A DNA stretch of 64,000 bases from an uncultured Methanosarcinaceae archaeon (GCA_963727895.1 CAVSHT010000006.1:1-64000); one strand, 5' to 3'. Numbered from the stretch's first letter, positions 18,799 through 62,090 are shown. The notes: generated by a model from the letters alone, not told the origin. A program made the numbers and translations.

Positions 18799-19810
18799 AT
18801 TTTCACTCGATACTCTCCGGTTTTCTGATTCTTTATGCTATGATCTGTTTTAATGTCGGTATCTAAGGGACTCTTTATAGCTTCCGGTTTTAATGTTTTA
18901 AAAAATGTTTTTATAGCGAAAAACTTTAAGAATATTGTACATTTTTTACTTAGAAATCTTCTTATGATACTGGTAAGTGCTACCAAATATTAAATTTTTC
19001 TATTTAGTACTATTACCTGACAATTTGAGTTAATAGACACTCATTGAGCTCTAAAGCTCTAAACTAGAGTATTGAAACTATTGTACAATATTGTTTAGAT
19101 GAGCTTATAAATTCCTTTAATTTGTTTTTATGTGTATTTTTGCATATTTCCTTGCCTTTTTATTCTACCTTTTTATTCTAATTAGGTCTATGTTGTAGCG
19201 TTAAACAAAAATCTTAACAAATTATCTAAAATGGATTACATTAATTCACAACTCTTTATATCTATATGTTAAAACAGTGTGATATATGTAAATTAAAAAG
19301 CTAAGATATAAATCGGACTGTATAACCTGGAAGATCGCCTTATTGATTTTACTCTATCCTTACAGTTTGTTTAATCTTTGATTGCCTACTCTAGTTCAAT
19401 TGGAGGATATCAATAACCTACTTTAGTTCAATTGAAGACCCTCAATTGGTATTTTTAAGAACTGTAAGTTTGGGAATATATTGTATATTTCCTGTTTGTG
19501 TTCAGGATAAAAAAATCACATATTTTACAATTTTCCTAATAACTCATGATCTTCAGAAGCAATAACAGTCCCAAAAGCGAGTTTGGGAGTGGACTAAATA
19601 CTTGGCAGGTTCATACACGATTGTTCAACCAGCCATGTATTTTTTCTCCTGATAACTCAGATTCTTATAGTTTTCTTCTTTTTTTAGTTTACCTAATGTC
19701 ATATTTTTCGGGTCACTGGTATAGTACTTTTTTTAGTTTATTAGCTAGAATTTCTTAAGTTAAAAACAAAGTTTACCAGAAAAGTATAGACAGAATATGA
19801 ATAAATATTT

Positions 19811-20550
19811 GGCTTTGATAATTAACTATAGTTAGTTATTATGAGAACCTATATTTCTTCATGAACTGCCCAAAATGTAATAGTTCCAGTCACAAAAATA
19901 ATGGTATGGTTGGTGGGCGTCAACTCTACAAATGCTCTGATTGTGGCTATAACTATACAGTAGAGCTAAAATCAACTGCTTTTTCTGCTTCTGTAAAAAG
20001 ACAGGCTTTACAACTCTATCTTGAAGGATTGGGCTTTCGTTCAATAGGAAGAGTTTTAGGGGTAAGTCATGTTTCTGTCCAAAGATGGATAAAGAAATTT
20101 GGTAAGGAGTTAGAGGCTCTAAAAAGTGAAAGTGAGATATCTATTGTTGAAATGGATGAAATGCACACTTACATCGGTAACAAAAAAAATATTGCTGGAT
20201 CTGGATTGCTGTTGATAGAGTTGGGAAAAAGTTCATCAACTGCTCTTTTGGTAGCAGAGGAATGGAAACTGGAAAACTACTCTGGGAAAAATTGAAGAAA
20301 AAAGAGATTGGAGAAGTGATGACCGATCACTGGAGAGCATATGCAGAGTTTCTTCCAGAAAAGATCCATACTCAATCCAAAGCAGAAACGTATACTGTTG
20401 AAGGATATAACAGCATATTGAGGCACTTTCTGGCAAGGTTGAGAAGAAAGACAAAGTGTTATACAAAAAGTCTTGAAATGCTAAAGTACTCGGTTATTCT
20501 ATTGATGAAATACAGAAATAAAGAACCAGATATATTTAATTACCAATACC
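19811..20550 (+). mobile_element. IS1-family element (740 bp), InsA/InsB joined by -1 frameshift at A8 (20182-20189)
   Basis: Ends GGCTTTGATAA / TTACCAATACC; MNCPKC..YKCSDC zinc finger, HTH, MDEMHTY, TDHW, VEGYNS. Confidence 0.93.
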
Positions 20551-20959
20551 TTATATTTTATTACCTAAGTTTGACAGTATTCACTAATTGATATTGAAAA
20601 TCTACTATTTTTAGCTCAATTTGATTTGACAAAAACTCATGAATCCATAAAATTTTGTTATATCTTCTACGTAATAGTGCCCATTTTTGTTACAATTAAG
20701 CTATTGATCTTATCAAAATTAGCAAAAATATAATTTCTGATTCCTTTTTTCACGAATTTTATTGTAAGTGTCAAATTCTTGTTTGATTTAAGGCAAAAAA
20801 ATCCTTCTCTTCCATTAATTATGGAACTTTTCAGGAGTTCTATTGCTTCTTGCTCACTAAGCTCTTCGAGCTTACCCCTAAAACGCACATGCTTTTCTTC
20901 GAATAACAAGCACAACTAATGAAAGTACTCTCCGTTCTTTTTTTGGACTATTAAGCCCT

Positions 20960-21105
20960 CATTACCTTGGGCAGTAAGGTTGTCTCGATTTTGGTTTTTC
21001 AAAACCGTCCTAAAACTAATCAGTGAATTGCCATCGAAGGCTCAAGTGTGACTTTGATCACGGATGCTAAATTGGTCTTTTAGGCAATTCCACTGCCCAA
21101 ATAAA
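20960..21105 (+). ncRNA. Candidate IS110 bridge RNA
   Basis: Outer stem TTGGGCAGT/ACTGCCCAA encloses two hairpins with internal loops whose sequences match the target site and the element's right end. Boundaries approximate. Confidence 0.7.
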
Positions 21106-22504
21106 TTTGGCGATCTAATTTGATTGAGGTCATAAACAAAGCTTGTGGTTTAGACATTCACAAACTCTTTTTCATTGCTACAATTCTCAGTATATCTGGT
21201 GAAAAACAACAGCAACGTTTCAACAGAGATGATGAAGGAATTTTAGCCCTTAAAAATTGGGTAATATCAGAAAAATGTGATGTTGTTGCATGTGAATCAA
21301 CCAGCGACTTTTGGGTTCCGATTCATGATTCATTGGTAAAGCATCTAACTGTGATAGTTGGAAATGCGCGAGATATGAAGGTATTTACCCATACAAAAAC
21401 ATATAAGATTGACTCAGAAGTCATTGCACAACTTGCACTTAATAATATGATTCAGCCATCAAGAGTTTTTCCAAAGGATCATATAGATTTTAGATCATAT
21501 GTTCTACTTCGGTTAACACTTGTACAAAAAAGAACAGATTTAAAAAATAAAGCTCACTCAATTCTTGCATCTGAAATTCAATTTTTGCATCTGAAATGCT
21601 ACACCTGAATAATGTGCTGACAGACGTTTTTGGCAAGAATGGCAGAATGATCTTATTAGGAATCTCTTCAGGTAAGAGTGTTGATCAGATTATTGCAAGC
21701 CTCTCTCCAAATGTTCGGAAAAAAGCTGCTCAGATAAGAGAAATTCTTGATCGAGAAATTTCTCAAAGTGCTGCATTCAGACTTCAGATCTGTCTGAAAC
21801 TCATAAAAAGTCTTGATGATGAACTCGAAGCTTTAGAAACAGAAATTTTCAATTATGCTTCTCGAAATCATAAGCGAGAAATGGAGATTTTAATGTCAGT
21901 TCCAGGTATAGGGAAACTTGGTGCGGCAATTTTACTTGCTGAAATAGGCAACTTTAAGGATTTTTCTTCTGGAAATAAGCTTGCTTCTTGGCTTGGTCTA
22001 GTTCCTAATGTGTATCAATCTGCAGATAAATACTATAACGGCAGAATCACAAAGAGGGGATCAAAAGTAGCAAGGTGGATTCTGACACAGATTGCTCAAG
22101 CAGCAGCAAGAAAGAAGAATAGCAGGTTAAAAGAGTTTTTTAACAGAAAAAAGAAGTTGATTGGACATGCTGTCAATGCCGGTGAATAATTCCTCATTTT
22201 AGCCGGATTTAAATTCCCTAATTTCCAATCCTCAAGAAAAGCTTGAGGATCGTAAATAATGCTGAAAATGGAGGAATGGCTATTGATACGAGATTTGTAT
22301 TCACAAGGCTTTAGCATCAGTGAAATCACCAGAAAAACAGGCTTTGACAGGAAAACTGTAAAGAAATATATTCGGCTGAAAACCTTGCCCGAACCCCAGA
22401 AACGTTCTGGAAGAAAGAGCAAGCTTGATCCTTTCAAACCTTATATTCTTGAAAACTTAAAGAAGGTCCCTATACTGCTGCTCGCCTATTTCGTGAAATA
22501 AAAG

Positions 22505-23200
22505 GGTATTGCTAACTAAACATAGTTAACTCTTTATTTCTGTATTTCATCAATAGAATAACCGAGTACTTTAGCATTTCAAGACTCTTCGTATAACACT
22601 TTGTCTTTCTTCTCAATCTTGCTAGAAAGTGCCTCAATATGCTGTTATATCCTTCAACAGTATACGTTTCTGCTTTGGATTGAGTATGAATCGTTTCAGG
22701 AAGAAACTCTGCATATGTTCTCCAGTAATCTGTCATCACTTCTCCAATCTCTTTTTTCTTCAATTTTTCCCAGAGTAGTTTTCCAGTTTCTGTTCCTCTG
22801 TTACCAAAAGGATCCATCAATATTTTTTTGTTACAGATGTAAGTATTCATCTCATCCATTTCAACAATAGATATCTCATTTTCACTTTTTAGGTCCTCTC
22901 ACTCTTGACCAAATTTCTTTATCCATTTTTGGACAGAAACATGACTCACCCCTAAAACTCTTCCTATTGAACGAAAGCCCAATACTTCAAGGTAAAGTTG
23001 TAAAGCCTGTCTTTTTACAGAAGCGGAAAAAGCAGTTGATTTTAGCTCTACTGTATAGTTATAGCCACAATCAGAGCATTTGTACCGTTGACGCCCACCA
23101 ACTATACCATTATTTTTGTGACTGGAACTATTACATTTTGGGCAGTTCATGAAGAAATATATGTTATAAGCATATACATCTATTTTTGTTTACCAATACC
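22505..23200 (-). mobile_element. Defective IS1 (696 bp) inside istA
   Basis: TIRs GGTATTG(C/G)TAA; 8-bp TSD AATAAAAG at 22497-22504 and 23201-23208; premature TGA and a 43-bp internal deletion relative to the other copies. Confidence 0.95.
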
Positions 23201-23884
23201 AATAAAAGAAATGGGTTTTGATGGAGGAAAAACCATAGTCAAGGACTTTGTACAAAAAGTCCGACCTGAGCAAAGAACCCCTGCTGTATTTCGCTACGAA
23301 ACAAAACCAGGTGTACAGGCTCAGGTAGACTGGGGAGAGATGGGAACAGTTGAAGTTGATGGAAAAGCAACGAAACTTTTTTGCTTCAACATGATTCTTG
23401 GATATTCAAGAATGAGATATATTGAATTTACACTGAGCATAGACACTCCAACTCTAATTCAGTGTCACTTGAATGCTTTTGAGTATTTTTGAGGATTTAC
23501 ACAGGAGATTCTCTATGATAACATGAAACAGGTCGTTATCAAAAAAGCCTTAAAATCATCAGATTCTGAATGGAACTCACAGTTTAAGGATTTCTTCAAA
23601 TGCTTTGGTTTTATTCCCAAGTTATGCAGGCCTTACAGGCCTCAAACAAAAGGTAAAATTGAAAATACAGTAGGTTACGTCAAAAGGGATTTCTTCCTTG
23701 GAAGAAGGTTTACCTCTCTTGAAGAACTGAACGACCAAGTTAACAGTTGGTTAGAAAGGGTAAACTCAACTGTCCATGGAACAACCTATCAAATTCCTCT
23801 TGAACGCTTTAAGGAGGAGGACCTGAACCCTCTGGGTCAGGTTCCTCCTTACAAAGTTGTTCAGAAGGAGACCAGAAAGGTCTC

Positions 23885-24296
23885 CAGAGACTGTTATATT
23901 CCATTCCTTGGAAATAAGTATTCTGTTCCTTACAGGTATGCAGGAAGAACTGCAGAGCTTCATATTTTTGAAGGAAAATTAGAGATCTATGTTGATTATG
24001 AAAAGATCTGTGAACATGCAATTCTCCCAGGTAACTGCAGAGTTTCAAGGAAAAAGGAACATTTCCAGGGTTTACTGAGTGAGATTCTTACAGAGACTGT
24101 TATATTCCATTCCTTGGAAATAAGTATTCTGTTCCTTACAGGTATGCAGGAAGAACTGCAGAGCTTCATATTTTTGAAGGAAAATTAGAGATCTATGTTG
24201 ATTATGAAAAGATCTGTGAACATGCAATTCTCCCAGGTAACTGCAGAGTTTCAAGGAAAAAGGAACATTTCCAGGGTTTACTGAGTGAGATTCTTA
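23885..24296 (+). repeat. 206-bp tandem duplication in istA
   Basis: 23885-24090 repeated at 24091-24296; AGAGA microhomology at the junctions. Confidence 0.93.
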
Positions 24297-24408
24297 AAGA
24301 GAACTCAAAATGCAAGAAAAATTCACAGATTCCGTTGAAATTCTCAGGTCCTGAAGTTGAAAAAAGGTCTCTTGATGTCTATGAAATATTTAGCCAGGGA
24401 GGTTTTGA

Positions 24409-25182
24409 ATGAACAACTTCACCTATGAGAGGCTTCACAACAATCTGCAATACCTGAAACTGAATACTGTTGAAGAGCTCCTTGACAACTTTCTTGAAAT
24501 TGCTGTAAGGGACAACAAGACAACAATGGAAGTTCTTGATTATCTATTTGAACAGGAAAAGAAACACAGAGAAGCTGTTGCAATTGAGAGAAGGATGAAA
24601 AGTGCAGTTTTTCCTGTTAAAAAAACTCTTGAGGAATTCGATTTTGAATTTCAGAAATCCATTGATAAGAAGATAATCGAAGACCTTGCAACCTTGAGAT
24701 TTGTTCATAATTCAGAGAATGTTGTTTTCCTTGGTCCACCAGGTGTTGGAAAATCTCATCTTGCAATTGCCCTTGGAATTGAAGCAGTAAAAGCAGGGAT
24801 TTCGGTTTATTTTACTAATACAGAAAACCTTATTGAAAGGTTGAAAAAAGCAAATCAAGAAGGAATGCTTGAAAAGAAACTAAGGGACTTGATGAAGTAT
24901 AAAGTGCTGATTATTGATGAAATAGGATATCTTCCATTTGACGAAGAAGGAGCTCACTTTTTATTTCACCTAATCTCAAGACGTTATGAAAAGAGTTCAA
25001 CGATCTTGACATCGAATAAGTCGTATGGAGAATGGGGAGAGATATTCAAGGACCATGTAATAGCGGCTGCTGTACTTGATAGGCTTCTCCATCATTCTAC
25101 GACGATTGATATCAAAGGGGAAAGTTACAGGCTGAAAGAAAGGAAGAAACAGGGTATAAAAACAGGAAATCTATACCAGTAA
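24409..25182 (+). CDS. istB: IS21 helper ATPase IstB
   Basis: FDFEFQ, GPPGVGKSHLA, LIIDEIGY, LDRLLHH, GESYR. Confidence 0.96.
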   Translation: MNNFTYERLHNNLQYLKLNTVEELLDNFLEIAVRDNKTTMEVLDYLFEQEKKHREAVAIERRMKSAVFPVKKTLEEFDFEFQKSIDKKIIEDLATLRFVHNSENVVFLGPPGVGKSHLAIALGIEAVKAGISVYFTNTENLIERLKKANQEGMLEKKLRDLMKYKVLIIDEIGYLPFDEEGAHFLFHLISRRYEKSSTILTSNKSYGEWGEIFKDHVIAAAVLDRLLHHSTTIDIKGESYRLKERKKQGIKTGNLYQ

Positions 25183-25502
25183 TTTTTAACAAGTTCATGA
25201 AAAATTGAGTAAACTTTATATCACAAGGTGGGGAAAAGTAAACCGGCATTGACAACATGCAAAAGCAATTATTGCCTTAGCAAGGAAAATTGCAACGATA
25301 ATATGGCATCTTATTACGAATGATGAGATATACGAAGATGAAACTGGCTATAAAAAAGGAAAAATTCAAAAGAGGAAGATTGTCGAGACTGAGATATTCT
25401 CGATTGATGAAAGGATAACAATAATTAGTGAAATATTTGCAATAACGAGAAAAGAGGATGAAGAGAGCACATGAGGAAGAGATCCTTATATACTTTCATG
25501 CT

Positions 25503-25746
25503 AAATCGTCCTATTGAGCGAAAGCCTAATCCTTCAAGATAGAGTTGTAAAGCCTGTCTTTTTACAAAAGCGGAAAAAGCAGTTGATTTTAGCTCTACTG
25601 TATAGTTATAGCTACAATCAGAGCATTTGTACCATTGACGCCCACCAACTATACCATTCTTTTTGTGACTGGAACTATTGCATCTTGGGCAGTTCATGCA
25701 GAATTATATTTTCTAATAAAAGATACTATCTTTAAGTATCAAAGCC
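25503..25746 (-). mobile_element. IS1 5' fragment (target of the IS110)
   Basis: TIR GGCTTTGATA at 25746; insA MNCPRC...GFRSIGRF cut at the IS110 right end. Confidence 0.9.
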
Positions 25747-25825
25747 AAAATTATAATAATATAAAAAATAGAAAAAAGCAGAGGACAAATTTCCTCTACA
25801 AATTTATTTAATATCTTTTTTCTGT

Positions 25826-26777
25826 TTATGTCAGCTTGGTAACCGGGTGGTTTGCCAGGTCCACGATCTCGATACCGAGATCTTTCGCGGTTTCACCAAG
25901 CATGATGTCGACCATTGCTACAGCAGGGAAGACTTCGTTGACATTCTCGATCGGTCCATAAAGGAGGTAATCAGAGCCTGCAATCTGTGCTACCAGGTTG
26001 GTACCAATGTCTGAAGGCATGTAGACAGCTTTCGGATCAGGCATAGTTTTCTTGAATTTCCTTAACCAGCTCCAGGAAGATGCCATGTTGTGGTATCCTC
26101 CACCGACTGGCAGCCCGAATTTTGCTTTCATTGTGGGTATCGAGCGGATAGTAGGACCGGAACCTGCGCCAAGAGGCATTGCAGCGACGTCGATTAAGGG
26201 ATACTTGATTCCACAGTCCTTTGCGATCTCAAGCATTCCTTTTGTTAGTCCGGAACCACCGACTTCAAGAACGTCCATCTTTCCTTTTACGGTGGGGTCG
26301 ACTGCGTTAAAGGCGAGCACAATAGATGCTGTCCACATCGCTTTCAGTAAGGACATCGATTTCTGCCTGTTCAATACTTGCGTTGATTGAGTTGTGTACA
26401 GCCCTGTCTGCAACTCCGATCTCGGTACAGTATTTGGCAGCAGCAGCCCTTACATTTCCTGCAGAGGAGTCGATCAGGAAAGGAGTGTGGTCATCGATAT
26501 CAACAAACCACTTTATGTAGTTACAAATCGCTTCGGGGGTTTCACCTACGATCTGGTTCGCATAGGGGAGACCAGTGGCATCGCTCATTGTTTGCTGGGT
26601 ATTCCAGAGCGATTCCGCAGTTGCTCTGTCAAAAATTCCCTTGTCTTCGTCTGAAACGATCTTGTGTTTTCCATAGAACATGGTGCTTACTAATACAGTT
26701 GGATATTCGCCTGGCTGACCACCGAATTTGACTCCACCTATCTCAAAGACTTCCTGTTTCTTATCAAATTTGAACAT
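25826..26777 (-). CDS. mtrH: Methyl-H4SPT:CoM methyltransferase subunit H (apparent 1-nt insertion ~26333)
   Basis: MFKFDKKQEVF..GGQPGEYPTVL, FLIDSS, NSINAS, then in the second frame GGGYHN, LLYGPIEN. Confidence 0.95.
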
Positions 26778-26793
26778 TTTTATCCCTCGCTTG

Positions 26794-27027
26794 TTAATGC
26801 ATGAACATTGATGATATCACAGTATAGACCAGGAAGAGCAGCACGCCAATCACGCCGCCGTACAGAATTCCGATGTCTCTTCCTACCTTCTTTCCGATTC
26901 TCTGAGCAATTTCACTGCCAACAAACTCTACTTTTTCTTCAATGTTGTCGAGCCGCTTCATGGCCGTGTTAAACTCGCTTTGATCTACAATAACTACGGG
27001 TGCTTTTCCATCACTCATAACACTCAC
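26794..27027 (-). CDS. mtrG: Mtr subunit G
   Basis: [30 protein letters not shown]. Confidence 0.96.
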
Positions 27028-61180: not shown

Positions 61181-61920
61181 GGCATTGTTATCTAAACATA
61201 GTTAACTCTTTATTTCTTTATTTCATCAATATAATAACCGAGTACTTTAGCATTTCAAGACTTTTTGTATAACACTTTGTCTTTCTTCTCAATCTTGCCA
61301 GGAAATGCCTCAATATGCTGTTATATCCCTCAACTGTAAATGTTTCTGCTTTGGATTGAGTATGGATCTTTTCTGGAATAAACTCTGCATATGCCCTCCA
61401 GTGATCTGTCATCACTTCTCCAATCTCTTTTTTCTTCAATTTTTCCCAGAGTAGTTTTCCAGTTTCTGTTCCTCTGCTACCAAAAGAGCAGTTGATAAAC
61501 TTTTTCCCAACTCTATCAACAGCAATCCAGATCCAGCAATATTTTTTTTGTTACCGATGTAAGTGTGCATCTCATCCATTTCAACAATAGATATCTCACT
61601 TTCACTTTTTAGGTCCTCTAACTCCTGACCAAATTTCTTTATCCATCTTTGGATAGAAACATGACTCACCCCTAAAACTCTTCCTATTGAACGAAAGCCC
61701 AATACTTCAAGGTAAAGTTGTAAAGCCTGTCTTTTTACAGAGGCGGAAAAAGCAGTTGATTTTAGCTCTACTGTATAGTTATATCCACAATCATGGCATT
61801 TGTAGCGTTGACGCCCGCCAACTATACCGTTCTTTTTGTGACTGGAACTATTGCATCTGGGGCAGTTCATGAAGAAATATACTTTCTAATAGTATATAAC
61901 TATGTTTAAGTATCAATGCC
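61181..61920 (-). mobile_element. IS1-family element (740 bp)
   Basis: TIRs GGCATTG(T/A)TA; insA 61870 onward, A8 slippery run, insB ending at a slightly early TAA (61218). Confidence 0.93.
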
Positions 61921-62090
61921 ATTTGCATTTATATCTTCATTAACCGGTTAAATATTAATTTAACCAGAAAATAGGCTGTATTCTTTTGAATGTCCTTTAT
62001 TTATCTTAATTTATTAAAAAAAGAGAAATAAACTTTAATTTGATAGTGTGTTTAAAAGAACTTAGTTAAACTTATTTTTAAAATGTTATT

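Follow-up and report, generated by a model that had tools for sequence, protein, structure and literature searches.

In a 64,000-nucleotide stretch of DNA from an uncultured Methanosarcinaceae archaeon (GCA_963727895.1 CAVSHT010000006.1:1-64000; hereafter the window), we found a dead copy of a 1.5-kb insertion sequence of the IS110 family, and sequence comparisons make it highly probable that the left end of this element, in a Methanosarcina-like methanogen, encodes a guide RNA on the same strand as the recombinase gene. The window corresponds to contig C6 in an assembly of 19 contigs and 3.67 Mb, with a completeness of 84%, and all coordinates given here are window positions. The two halves of the recombinase gene match PF01548 and then PF02371, and the 390-amino-acid frame of a sister copy matches NF033542, 'IS110 family RNA-guided transposase', with 261 bits against a cut-off of 140. 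The IS110 assignment made in a first-pass annotation of the window is thus borne out, as is its statement that this recombinase copy is dead: a 20-bp duplication and a nested IS21-family element break the reading frame. Undisrupted sister copies in the genome are 1511-1531 bp long.

The RNA core in the leader consists of an outer helix, P1, that encloses a target-binding and a donor-binding hairpin (Table 1). The outer stem, the two hairpins, the loop words and the stem coordinates reported in the first-pass annotation were all found in the window sequence exactly where it had placed them. The inner stem of the first hairpin, P3, reads GGTTT/AAACC, and the stem of the second is GAATTGCC/GGCAATTC. 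A minimum-free-energy fold of 20950-21125 returned the same helices with z = -2.1, and 6/200 shuffled sequences folded as well; as this is only modestly better than the shuffles, the single sequence is weak evidence for a structure. Homologs were gathered at 54 loci that encode proteins 34-94% identical, in Methanosarcina, Methanospirillum, Methanoculleus, Methanoperedens and metagenome bins. Six helices were placed manually on 11 aligned close leaders, a covariance model (R1) was built from this alignment, and 21 hits from 26 sources were aligned to the model, which scores 167.6 bits over 20967-21100. Base pairing is present in 93.7% of 778 pair cells across the 21 homologous leaders, and 21/38 pairs show compensatory change, including three of the five pairs in P2, two of five in P3, six of eight in P4, one of six in P5 and two of five in P6. 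None of 500 shuffles reached any of five measures of pairing, and partners that had been slid along the alignment paired in 30-48% of cells. The stems, on whose conservation the first-pass annotation had made its reading depend, are therefore kept and covarying. RNAalifold run on a plain MAFFT alignment of 17 leaders returned only 13 pairs, with the outer and apical helices misaligned, and the covariance model was used in its place. Many of the pairs in P2, P5 and P6 are G-U pairs that would become C-A on the other strand, which puts the RNA on the strand of the gene and rules out an RNA from the opposite strand. The comparison supports the view that the leader specifies a conserved two-loop RNA.

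The unpaired segments of this predicted RNA follow the DNA at the ends of the element. Loop segments, flanks and right ends were read from the sequences by coordinates, and flanks dealt to other guide classes served as a permutation control. The left flank and the 3' side of loop 1 share an identity of 0.84 over four variable positions in 16 guide classes, compared with 0.36 when permuted (0/20000). For the right flank and the 5' side of loop 1, the identity in 14 classes is 0.67 against 0.42 over four positions (0/20000) and 0.89 against 0.46 over two. In the genome of the window, 18/21 left flanks read CCTAAAA, the 3' segment of loop 1. Elsewhere, that segment has changed with the left flank, to TACGAAA at locus L041, TGTAAAA at L034 and TAAAAAA in 5/5 Methanospirillum copies. 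Among 12 further loci or classes, the loop 1 3' 7-mer is present exactly in the flanks of L070, L072, L073 and L076, in 8/8 copies of the G076 class, 2/6 of G116a and 3/5 of G116b, and has one or more mismatches in L067, L071, L074, L075 and L077. The 5' side of loop 1 matches the right flank over 10/11 nt in L010 and over 8 nt in both L009 and the G076 class. The same genome also holds a divergent subfamily in which the loop has changed from CCTAAAA to ACTAAAA, and both left flanks of this subfamily read ACTAAAA. A further sub-lineage in the genome carries C-to-T changes on both sides of loop 1, both of which would keep G-U pairing with the IS1 site described below.

The third segment, on the 3' side of loop 2, follows the right end of the element. 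The identity of ATGCTAA at 21064-21070 to the right end at 25498-25504, pointed out in the first-pass annotation, is exact, and at 16/19 loci searched the loop 2 8-mer is found exactly downstream of the gene. It is preceded there by TTTC in 14 cases, by TTAC in L041 and, doubtfully, by GCAC in L016. The variable bases (CT, TC, TT, CC, GA, GGA, AGA and AGG) change together in loop 2 and the right end. In the divergent subfamily, ATGCTAA in loop 2 has become ATGTCAA, and an orphan right end in the genome reads CATGTCAA. All three segments also follow in the eight copies of the G076 class, which have another core and another target. This class (L078-L085, G076:C1) is a distant member of the family with the core AG and a repeated target, ..CACAAAG/TCACAGA..; an upstream flank is common to 4/8 of its copies, and the target itself is accordingly a repeat. 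The first-pass annotation had inferred RNA-guided insertion and had pointed to covariation of loop and target as the way to examine it. That proposal is strengthened here, as the loop segments appear to track flanks and right end across elements at other sites, with 0/20000 permutations on each side.

The bases just past the core also show a pattern. On the 3' side of loop 1 this base equals the first base of the left end, which is C in most classes and A in G076; in the window copy it is the C at 21016, directly after CCTAAAA. On the 3' side of loop 2, the base past the core is mostly the first base of the right flank. These positions resemble the handshake positions of IS621, a likeness that rests on one change.

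In this genome, IS1 is the main landing site of the element. IS1 has expanded to 222 copies that are uninterrupted at the IS110 site, together with many more fragments, and three variants of the site dominate: a C-run, T, four A and CTC in 143 copies, five A and TCG in 46, and five A and TCT in 12, with other sequences in 21. In the window, IS1 sequence is found at 19846-20550, 22505-23215, 25505-25716 and 61181-61921. The three copies that lack the IS110 element carry the site CCCTAAAACTCTTCC at 20047-20061(-), 22950-22964 and 61670-61684, as the first-pass annotation had said. The 23 intact left junctions end in CTAAAA (21) or CTACAA (2), and one further left end is truncated. Among 24 right ends, 23 read CATGCTAA and one CATGTCAA. 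IS1, cut at one position of insA and always antisense to insA, adjoins the element at 13/24 left and 16/24 right junctions; ten copies have it on both sides, three on the left only and six on the right only. Eight left flanks that are not IS1 likewise end in CTAAAA. TC follows the A-run in 13/16 occupied right flanks within IS1, compared with 63/222 unoccupied sites (Fisher p = 3.8e-5), and the 16 occupied sites in this comparison need not all be independent events. The numbers of A at the two junctions fit a crossover in an AAA common to the target and the circle junction, and comparison with the empty sites reveals no target duplication.

The closest relatives of the element are in Methanosarcina, and model R1 has hits in 34/151 genomes sampled from the class and in 14/18 genomes of the genus; G116, G152 and G162 have 11-18 hits. 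Full recombinase frames are present at the homologous loci L006, L008, L009, L010 and L013. Every RNA sequencing run found accounted for less than one fifth of the sampled words, and four runs yielded contigs that cover the leader of near relatives. One 179-nt contig spans the equivalent of 20959-21114 with a word depth of 7664, against about 2250 over the gene, and carries the loop 1 variant of another guide class. These contigs are only a hint that the leader is expressed.

Immediately after the leader comes the start codon, and a structure in that place would by itself suit a regulatory role. The leader could then be nothing but a 5' untranslated region that controls the recombinase mRNA, with the protein alone picking the site. 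We regard this as very improbable: such a region gives no reason for three unpaired segments to track the left flank, the right flank and the right end over 14-16 classes, and relatives with proteins 71-94% identical use different sites that track their loops. That the matches between loops and flanks arose by chance might be suspected from their being A/T-rich words of only 7 nt, in a leader whose single-sequence fold exceeds shuffles only modestly (z = -2.1). When tested, this was not upheld, since no permutation on either side equalled the observed identity and dissimilar guides match their own flanks, namely TACGAAA in L041, TCCAAAA in L072, and CACAAAG plus GTCACAGA in the G076 class; chance has practically nothing left to explain.

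A single IS110 landing in one IS1 could also have been followed by spread of the composite through IS1 transposition, with mixed flanks produced by homologous recombination. More than 220 IS1 copies could supply the transposase, nine paired copies have IS1 on one side only, and 18/23 aligned copies share the 20-bp duplication. In addition, the left IS1 flanks of C4_467778, C5_154787 and C9_280067 are 100% identical over 200 nt, so that part of the copies may have been carried along with their IS1. Nevertheless, the IS1 sequence next to the copies varies as much as random pairs of IS1 do. Over 200 nt, the right IS1 flanks have a median identity of 0.94, with 1/120 pairs at >=98% (background 0.935 and 0.02), and the left IS1 flanks one of 0.95, with 10/78 pairs at >=98% (background 0.96 and 0.09). 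Occupied IS1 copies represent at least four site variants (TCG, TCA, TCT and CTC), the CTAAAA ending extends to the eight left flanks that are not IS1, and the rule that relates loop to flank holds in other genomes without IS1. Hitch-hiking may explain some copies and does not explain the pattern; as a general account it is improbable.

Several observations weigh against guidance of insertion by the leader RNA. Three of the 16 occupied sites are of the CTC type, which has three mismatches to the 5' guide, and 47/222 uninterrupted IS1 sites have the A-run plus TCG, match the guide well and are empty. The right-side signal is weaker than that on the left (0.67 against 0.84), and the guide classes in the permutation tests are related to each other. 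The alignment of leaders was fitted to the model, which favours structure, though the margin is large nonetheless, and a scan of 19000-27000 against Rfam with E up to 1 returned nothing relevant. The RNA contigs come from relatives and show neither ends nor strand, and DNA may be present in the libraries; gaps in their coverage and contrasts in depth from one contig to another are not taken to mark where a transcript ends. No frame is intact among the 23 paired copies in the assembly. The order of the guides is contrary to the IS621 rule, so the IS621 structural model is not simply transferable. Finally, a donor guide for the left end was sought on the 5' side of loop 2, in the bulge before P5 and in the 83 nt upstream of P1, and in none of these places does a segment follow the left end across the family; the first-pass annotation had likewise found no guide for the left donor half. 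The first bases of the left end are CGCA, CACA, CGAA, CGGA, CGTA, CACC and others across the family, and the 5' side of loop 2 does not follow them. Two candidates were rejected, GTGTG at 21046-21050 because it overlaps the covarying helix P6, and TTCGAA in the left end, which was set against TCGAAG in the RNA, because it is not conserved among relatives.

Local alignment of the left end with the right end's reverse complement revealed a 10-bp subterminal inverted repeat, placed 35 nt in from the left end and 5 nt in from the right. Its two copies match at 10/10 positions in the copy at G000:C4 394533. The Methanospirillum copy L036, the other of the two elements aligned formally, has a different 10-mer repeat in the same places. 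As a guess, the repeat may serve recognition of the left end.

The layout of the window copy is given in Table 1. The ends of the element are ambiguous by up to 3 nt because the A-run is common to element and target. The end at 25511 proposed in the first-pass annotation takes in 7 nt of flank and has been moved to 25504, give or take the shared A-run. Although the PF02371 match in the frame of the window copy spans 21596-22189, homology to the other copies stops at 22170. The IS21-family element inserted there is flanked by the duplication ACATGC (22165-22170 and 25255-25260), and of its genes istA is broken and istB (24409-25182) looks intact. The istA gene is broken by IS1 plus an internal repeat of ~230 bp (about 23862-24092 repeated at 24093-24298). 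An open reading frame at 25425-25697 overlaps the right-flank IS1 region. Just past the IS1 fragment, at 25826-26777 (-), ordinary genes resume with open reading frames at 25826-26413 and 26307-26777.

Table 1. Features of the IS110-family element and its surroundings in the window
Feature	Position	Strand	Basis or remark
Decayed IS110-family element	20884..25504	+	Ends fixed by 24 left-end and 24 right-end genome copies (BLAST)
Left flank: remnant of IS1634-family transposase gene	20600..20883	-	Last 13 nt (20871-20883) identical to IS1 site
Non-coding left end (leader), 236 nt	20884..21119	+	Between left junction and TTG start of recombinase frame
Subterminal inverted repeat, left copy, 10 bp	20919..20928	+	Left end aligned locally with reverse complement of right end
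Predicted bridge/seek RNA core	20967..21100	+	Outer helix P1 20967-20975 with 21092-21100, two hairpins enclosed; fold, covariation
Putative target-binding hairpin	20978..21021	+	P2 20978-20982/21017-21021; P3 20993-20997/21002-21006
Loop 1, 5' side, CGATTTT	20986..20992	+	Antisense to A-run plus right flank (AAAATCG)
Loop 1, 3' side, CCTAAAA	21009..21015	+	Same sense as left flank
Putative donor-binding hairpin	21025..21090	+	P4 21025-21032/21083-21090; P5 21036-21041/21075-21080; P6 21047-21051/21058-21062
Loop 2, 5' side, 5 nt	21042..21046	+	No match to left end
Loop 2, 3' side, ATGCTAAA	21064..21071	+	Same sense as right end plus A-run; identical to 25498-25505
Recombinase, N-terminal DEDD/RuvC-like part	21120..21608	+	PF01548, E = 1.5e-16; ended by frameshift
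20-bp tandem duplication, frame-breaking	21558..21597	+	Alignment of genome copies
Recombinase, Tnp-domain part up to IS21 insertion	21596..22170	+	PF02371, E = 1.9e-27
Nested IS21-family element	22171..25254	+	Terminal inverted repeats; IstB = PF01695, NF038214
IS1 inside istA of the IS21-family element	about 22505..23215	-	Its IS110 site unoccupied (22950-22964)
IS110 remainder: C-terminal codons and right end	25255..25504	+	Right subterminal repeat 25490-25499, 9/10 in window copy
Right flank: 5' part of IS1, insA cut at IS110 site	25505..25716	-	92% identity to IS1 positions 452-665

By joining the flanks of the window copy, the first-pass annotation had rebuilt a pre-insertion site in IS1 insA. 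The rebuilt sequence is right, and the right flank from 25505 onward is IS1 insA, while the left flank, past its last 13 nt, is the remnant of an IS1634-family gene and not IS1. Homologs of the left flank are multi-copy in 15/30 related genomes, and a 478-amino-acid homolog matches NF033559 with 176 bits. At the place of the junction, the sequence is ..AGTCTTAAAA, ..AGTCCTAAAA or ..AGTTCTAAAA in five homologs, and the IS1634-family gene therefore holds a look-alike site. The 13 nt at 20871-20883 are identical to IS1, and the IS1634-like homologs differ from them at 2-4 of the 13 places. Near G000:C3 277507, 18 nt identical to the IS1 site lie between the left end of an IS110 copy and DNA that is not IS1. 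The remnant lacks ~220 bp that are present in the homologs L061-L065 (query positions 1-181 and 167-284 are ~220 bp apart in G014 and G005).

Over its first 1287 nt the window copy is 97-99% identical to most other copies, and over its last 250 nt (25255-25504) 82-91% identical to the others, in line with a chimeric copy of mixed origin. In the simplest history, one IS110 copy would have landed in an IS1 and another in an IS1634-like gene, and recombination between the two would have left the left side adjoining another element. The product would then have decayed further. An IS21-family element later inserted into the window copy and was itself interrupted by IS1.

The protein of the family is about 414 codons long. 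The window copy has KTYKID where other copies have KTDKID, and the sole long frame in the genome (390 codons) also has Y in this motif and ends 24 codons early. A stop at codon 3 is common to seven paired copies. Of the 18 aligned copies with the 20-bp duplication, 17 have two units and C5_291645 has more; it is absent from four copies, and the internally deleted copy C7_3465 is uninformative in this respect. Defects shared by copies at different places would have arisen by movement in trans or by gene conversion among the copies, and the element is probably not active in this genome now. A search of the Protein Data Bank for the subgroup matched the IS621 and ISCro4 chains in the C-terminal domain only, and a tblastn search of plasmids returned only generic names.

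If the leader RNA does guide insertion, as we favour, the DEDD/serine recombinase would bind it and use it to align two partners. The target, CCTA-AAA-(A)TCG, would be aligned by loop 1. The 3' side of this loop reads as the left flank followed by the crossover A-run and would pair with the bottom strand, and the 5' side with the A-run and right flank of the top strand. Loop 2 would align the junction of the excised circle, predicted to read CATGCT-AAA-CGCAC, and strand exchange inside the shared A-run would leave no duplication. In this genome, the best-matching target is in the part of IS1 insA that codes for the helix-turn-helix, in antisense orientation. The element has accordingly inserted into IS1 many times, and occasionally into similar sites elsewhere such as that in the IS1634-family gene.

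Read in this way, the sequences would extend RNA-guided IS110 recombination to methanogenic archaea, and they provide a natural example of an insertion sequence that homes into a second one present in more than 220 copies. Insertion at the IS1 site would do the host no harm, and every such event disables a copy of IS1. The family may also be a source of compact guides, with a core rich in A, for the search for bridge recombinases active in archaea. The principle itself is not new. Its description in bacteria dates from 2024 and wide surveys have followed, and homing into another insertion sequence is known from ISEc21. What merits a specialist's look is the arrangement of the guides and the archaeal setting.

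In the surveys, bridge RNAs were predicted for most elements of the IS110 family (85.7% and 93.0% of the entries in ISfinder; 32,190 loci and 86 models), and both state in their text that many of the predicted structures deviate from that of IS621 (PMC11208160; bioRxiv 10.64898/2026.10.21.760802). Archaeal IS110 recombinases are known as proteins, 662 of which were counted according to the text of bioRxiv 10.1101/2024.06.21.599552. Our literature search found no description of this element, or of a Methanosarcina IS110 together with IS1.

According to the text of the papers on IS621 (PMC11208160, PMC11208158), that element shares with ours the DEDD/RuvC-like and Tnp domains and a structured RNA in the left end, upstream of the gene. 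In both, matching of the target falls to the first internal loop and matching of the donor to the second, the guides of the two sides overlap a short common core, no target duplication is made, and a guide base past the core matches the other partner (the handshake). The IS621 donor is the junction of right end and left end (PMC11208160, PMC11208158). Unlike in IS621, the guide order in loop 1 is reversed and the right-end guide is on the 3' side of loop 2. The order of IS621, which the first-pass annotation had implied in its account of known elements, is thus the opposite of that found here, where the 3' sides hold the sense copies and the 5' side holds the right flank in antisense. No left-end guide was found in the present element, whose loop 2 has a 5' side of only 5 nt, and the core is an A-run in place of the CT of IS621. 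The host is an archaeon, and at about 414 codons the recombinase is similar to the IS621 chain in the C-terminal domain only (E = 3.6e-9).

In the order of its guides, the element instead resembles the IS1111-family seekRNAs of ISEc11, ISKpn4, ISPa11 and ISPst6, in which, as described in the text of PMC11187229, the match to the top strand is 5' of that to the bottom strand. Its 10-bp subterminal inverted repeat is within the 7-17 bp range given there for IS1111 elements. A difference from those elements is that the left copy of the repeat here is 35 nt in from the end. In the IS1111 elements of the same text, the RNA is downstream of the gene and the transposases are 330-350 amino acids long, whereas here the RNA (20967-21100) precedes the gene start at 21120 and the protein is longer; an upstream RNA is reported there for only a few exceptional elements with unusual RNA positions. 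ISEc21, of the IS110 type, also has an upstream non-coding region that gives the guide RNA, and its natural target is a conserved segment within the transposase gene of other insertion sequences (PMC11187229, text). That target belongs to the IS3 family, the host is bacterial, and the match to the bottom strand comes first and that to the top strand second, which is the order of IS621 and, as the same text reports, the opposite of that of IS1111 seekRNAs. An upstream RNA combined with the IS1111 order was not found in the text of the literature consulted, and such a layout may already be catalogued in figures or supplements.

The IS110-type and IS1111-type layouts thus do not appear to exhaust the combinations of guide order and RNA position, and the arrangement seen here bears on how the RNA module moved in evolution and which features the recombinase needs. 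We tentatively suggest, as a possibility that is on balance doubtful, that it is a third wiring, with an upstream RNA as in IS110, the guide order and 10-bp repeat of IS1111, and a single donor guide encoded by the RNA, and that the copies with the 20-bp duplication are non-autonomous elements that carry their own guide and were moved in trans by a rare intact copy. Durrant et al. proposed, in the text of PMC11208160, that the RNA gene moved from one end of the element to the other, and if it did, the present arrangement, between those of IS621 and the IS1111 elements, looks like an intermediate.

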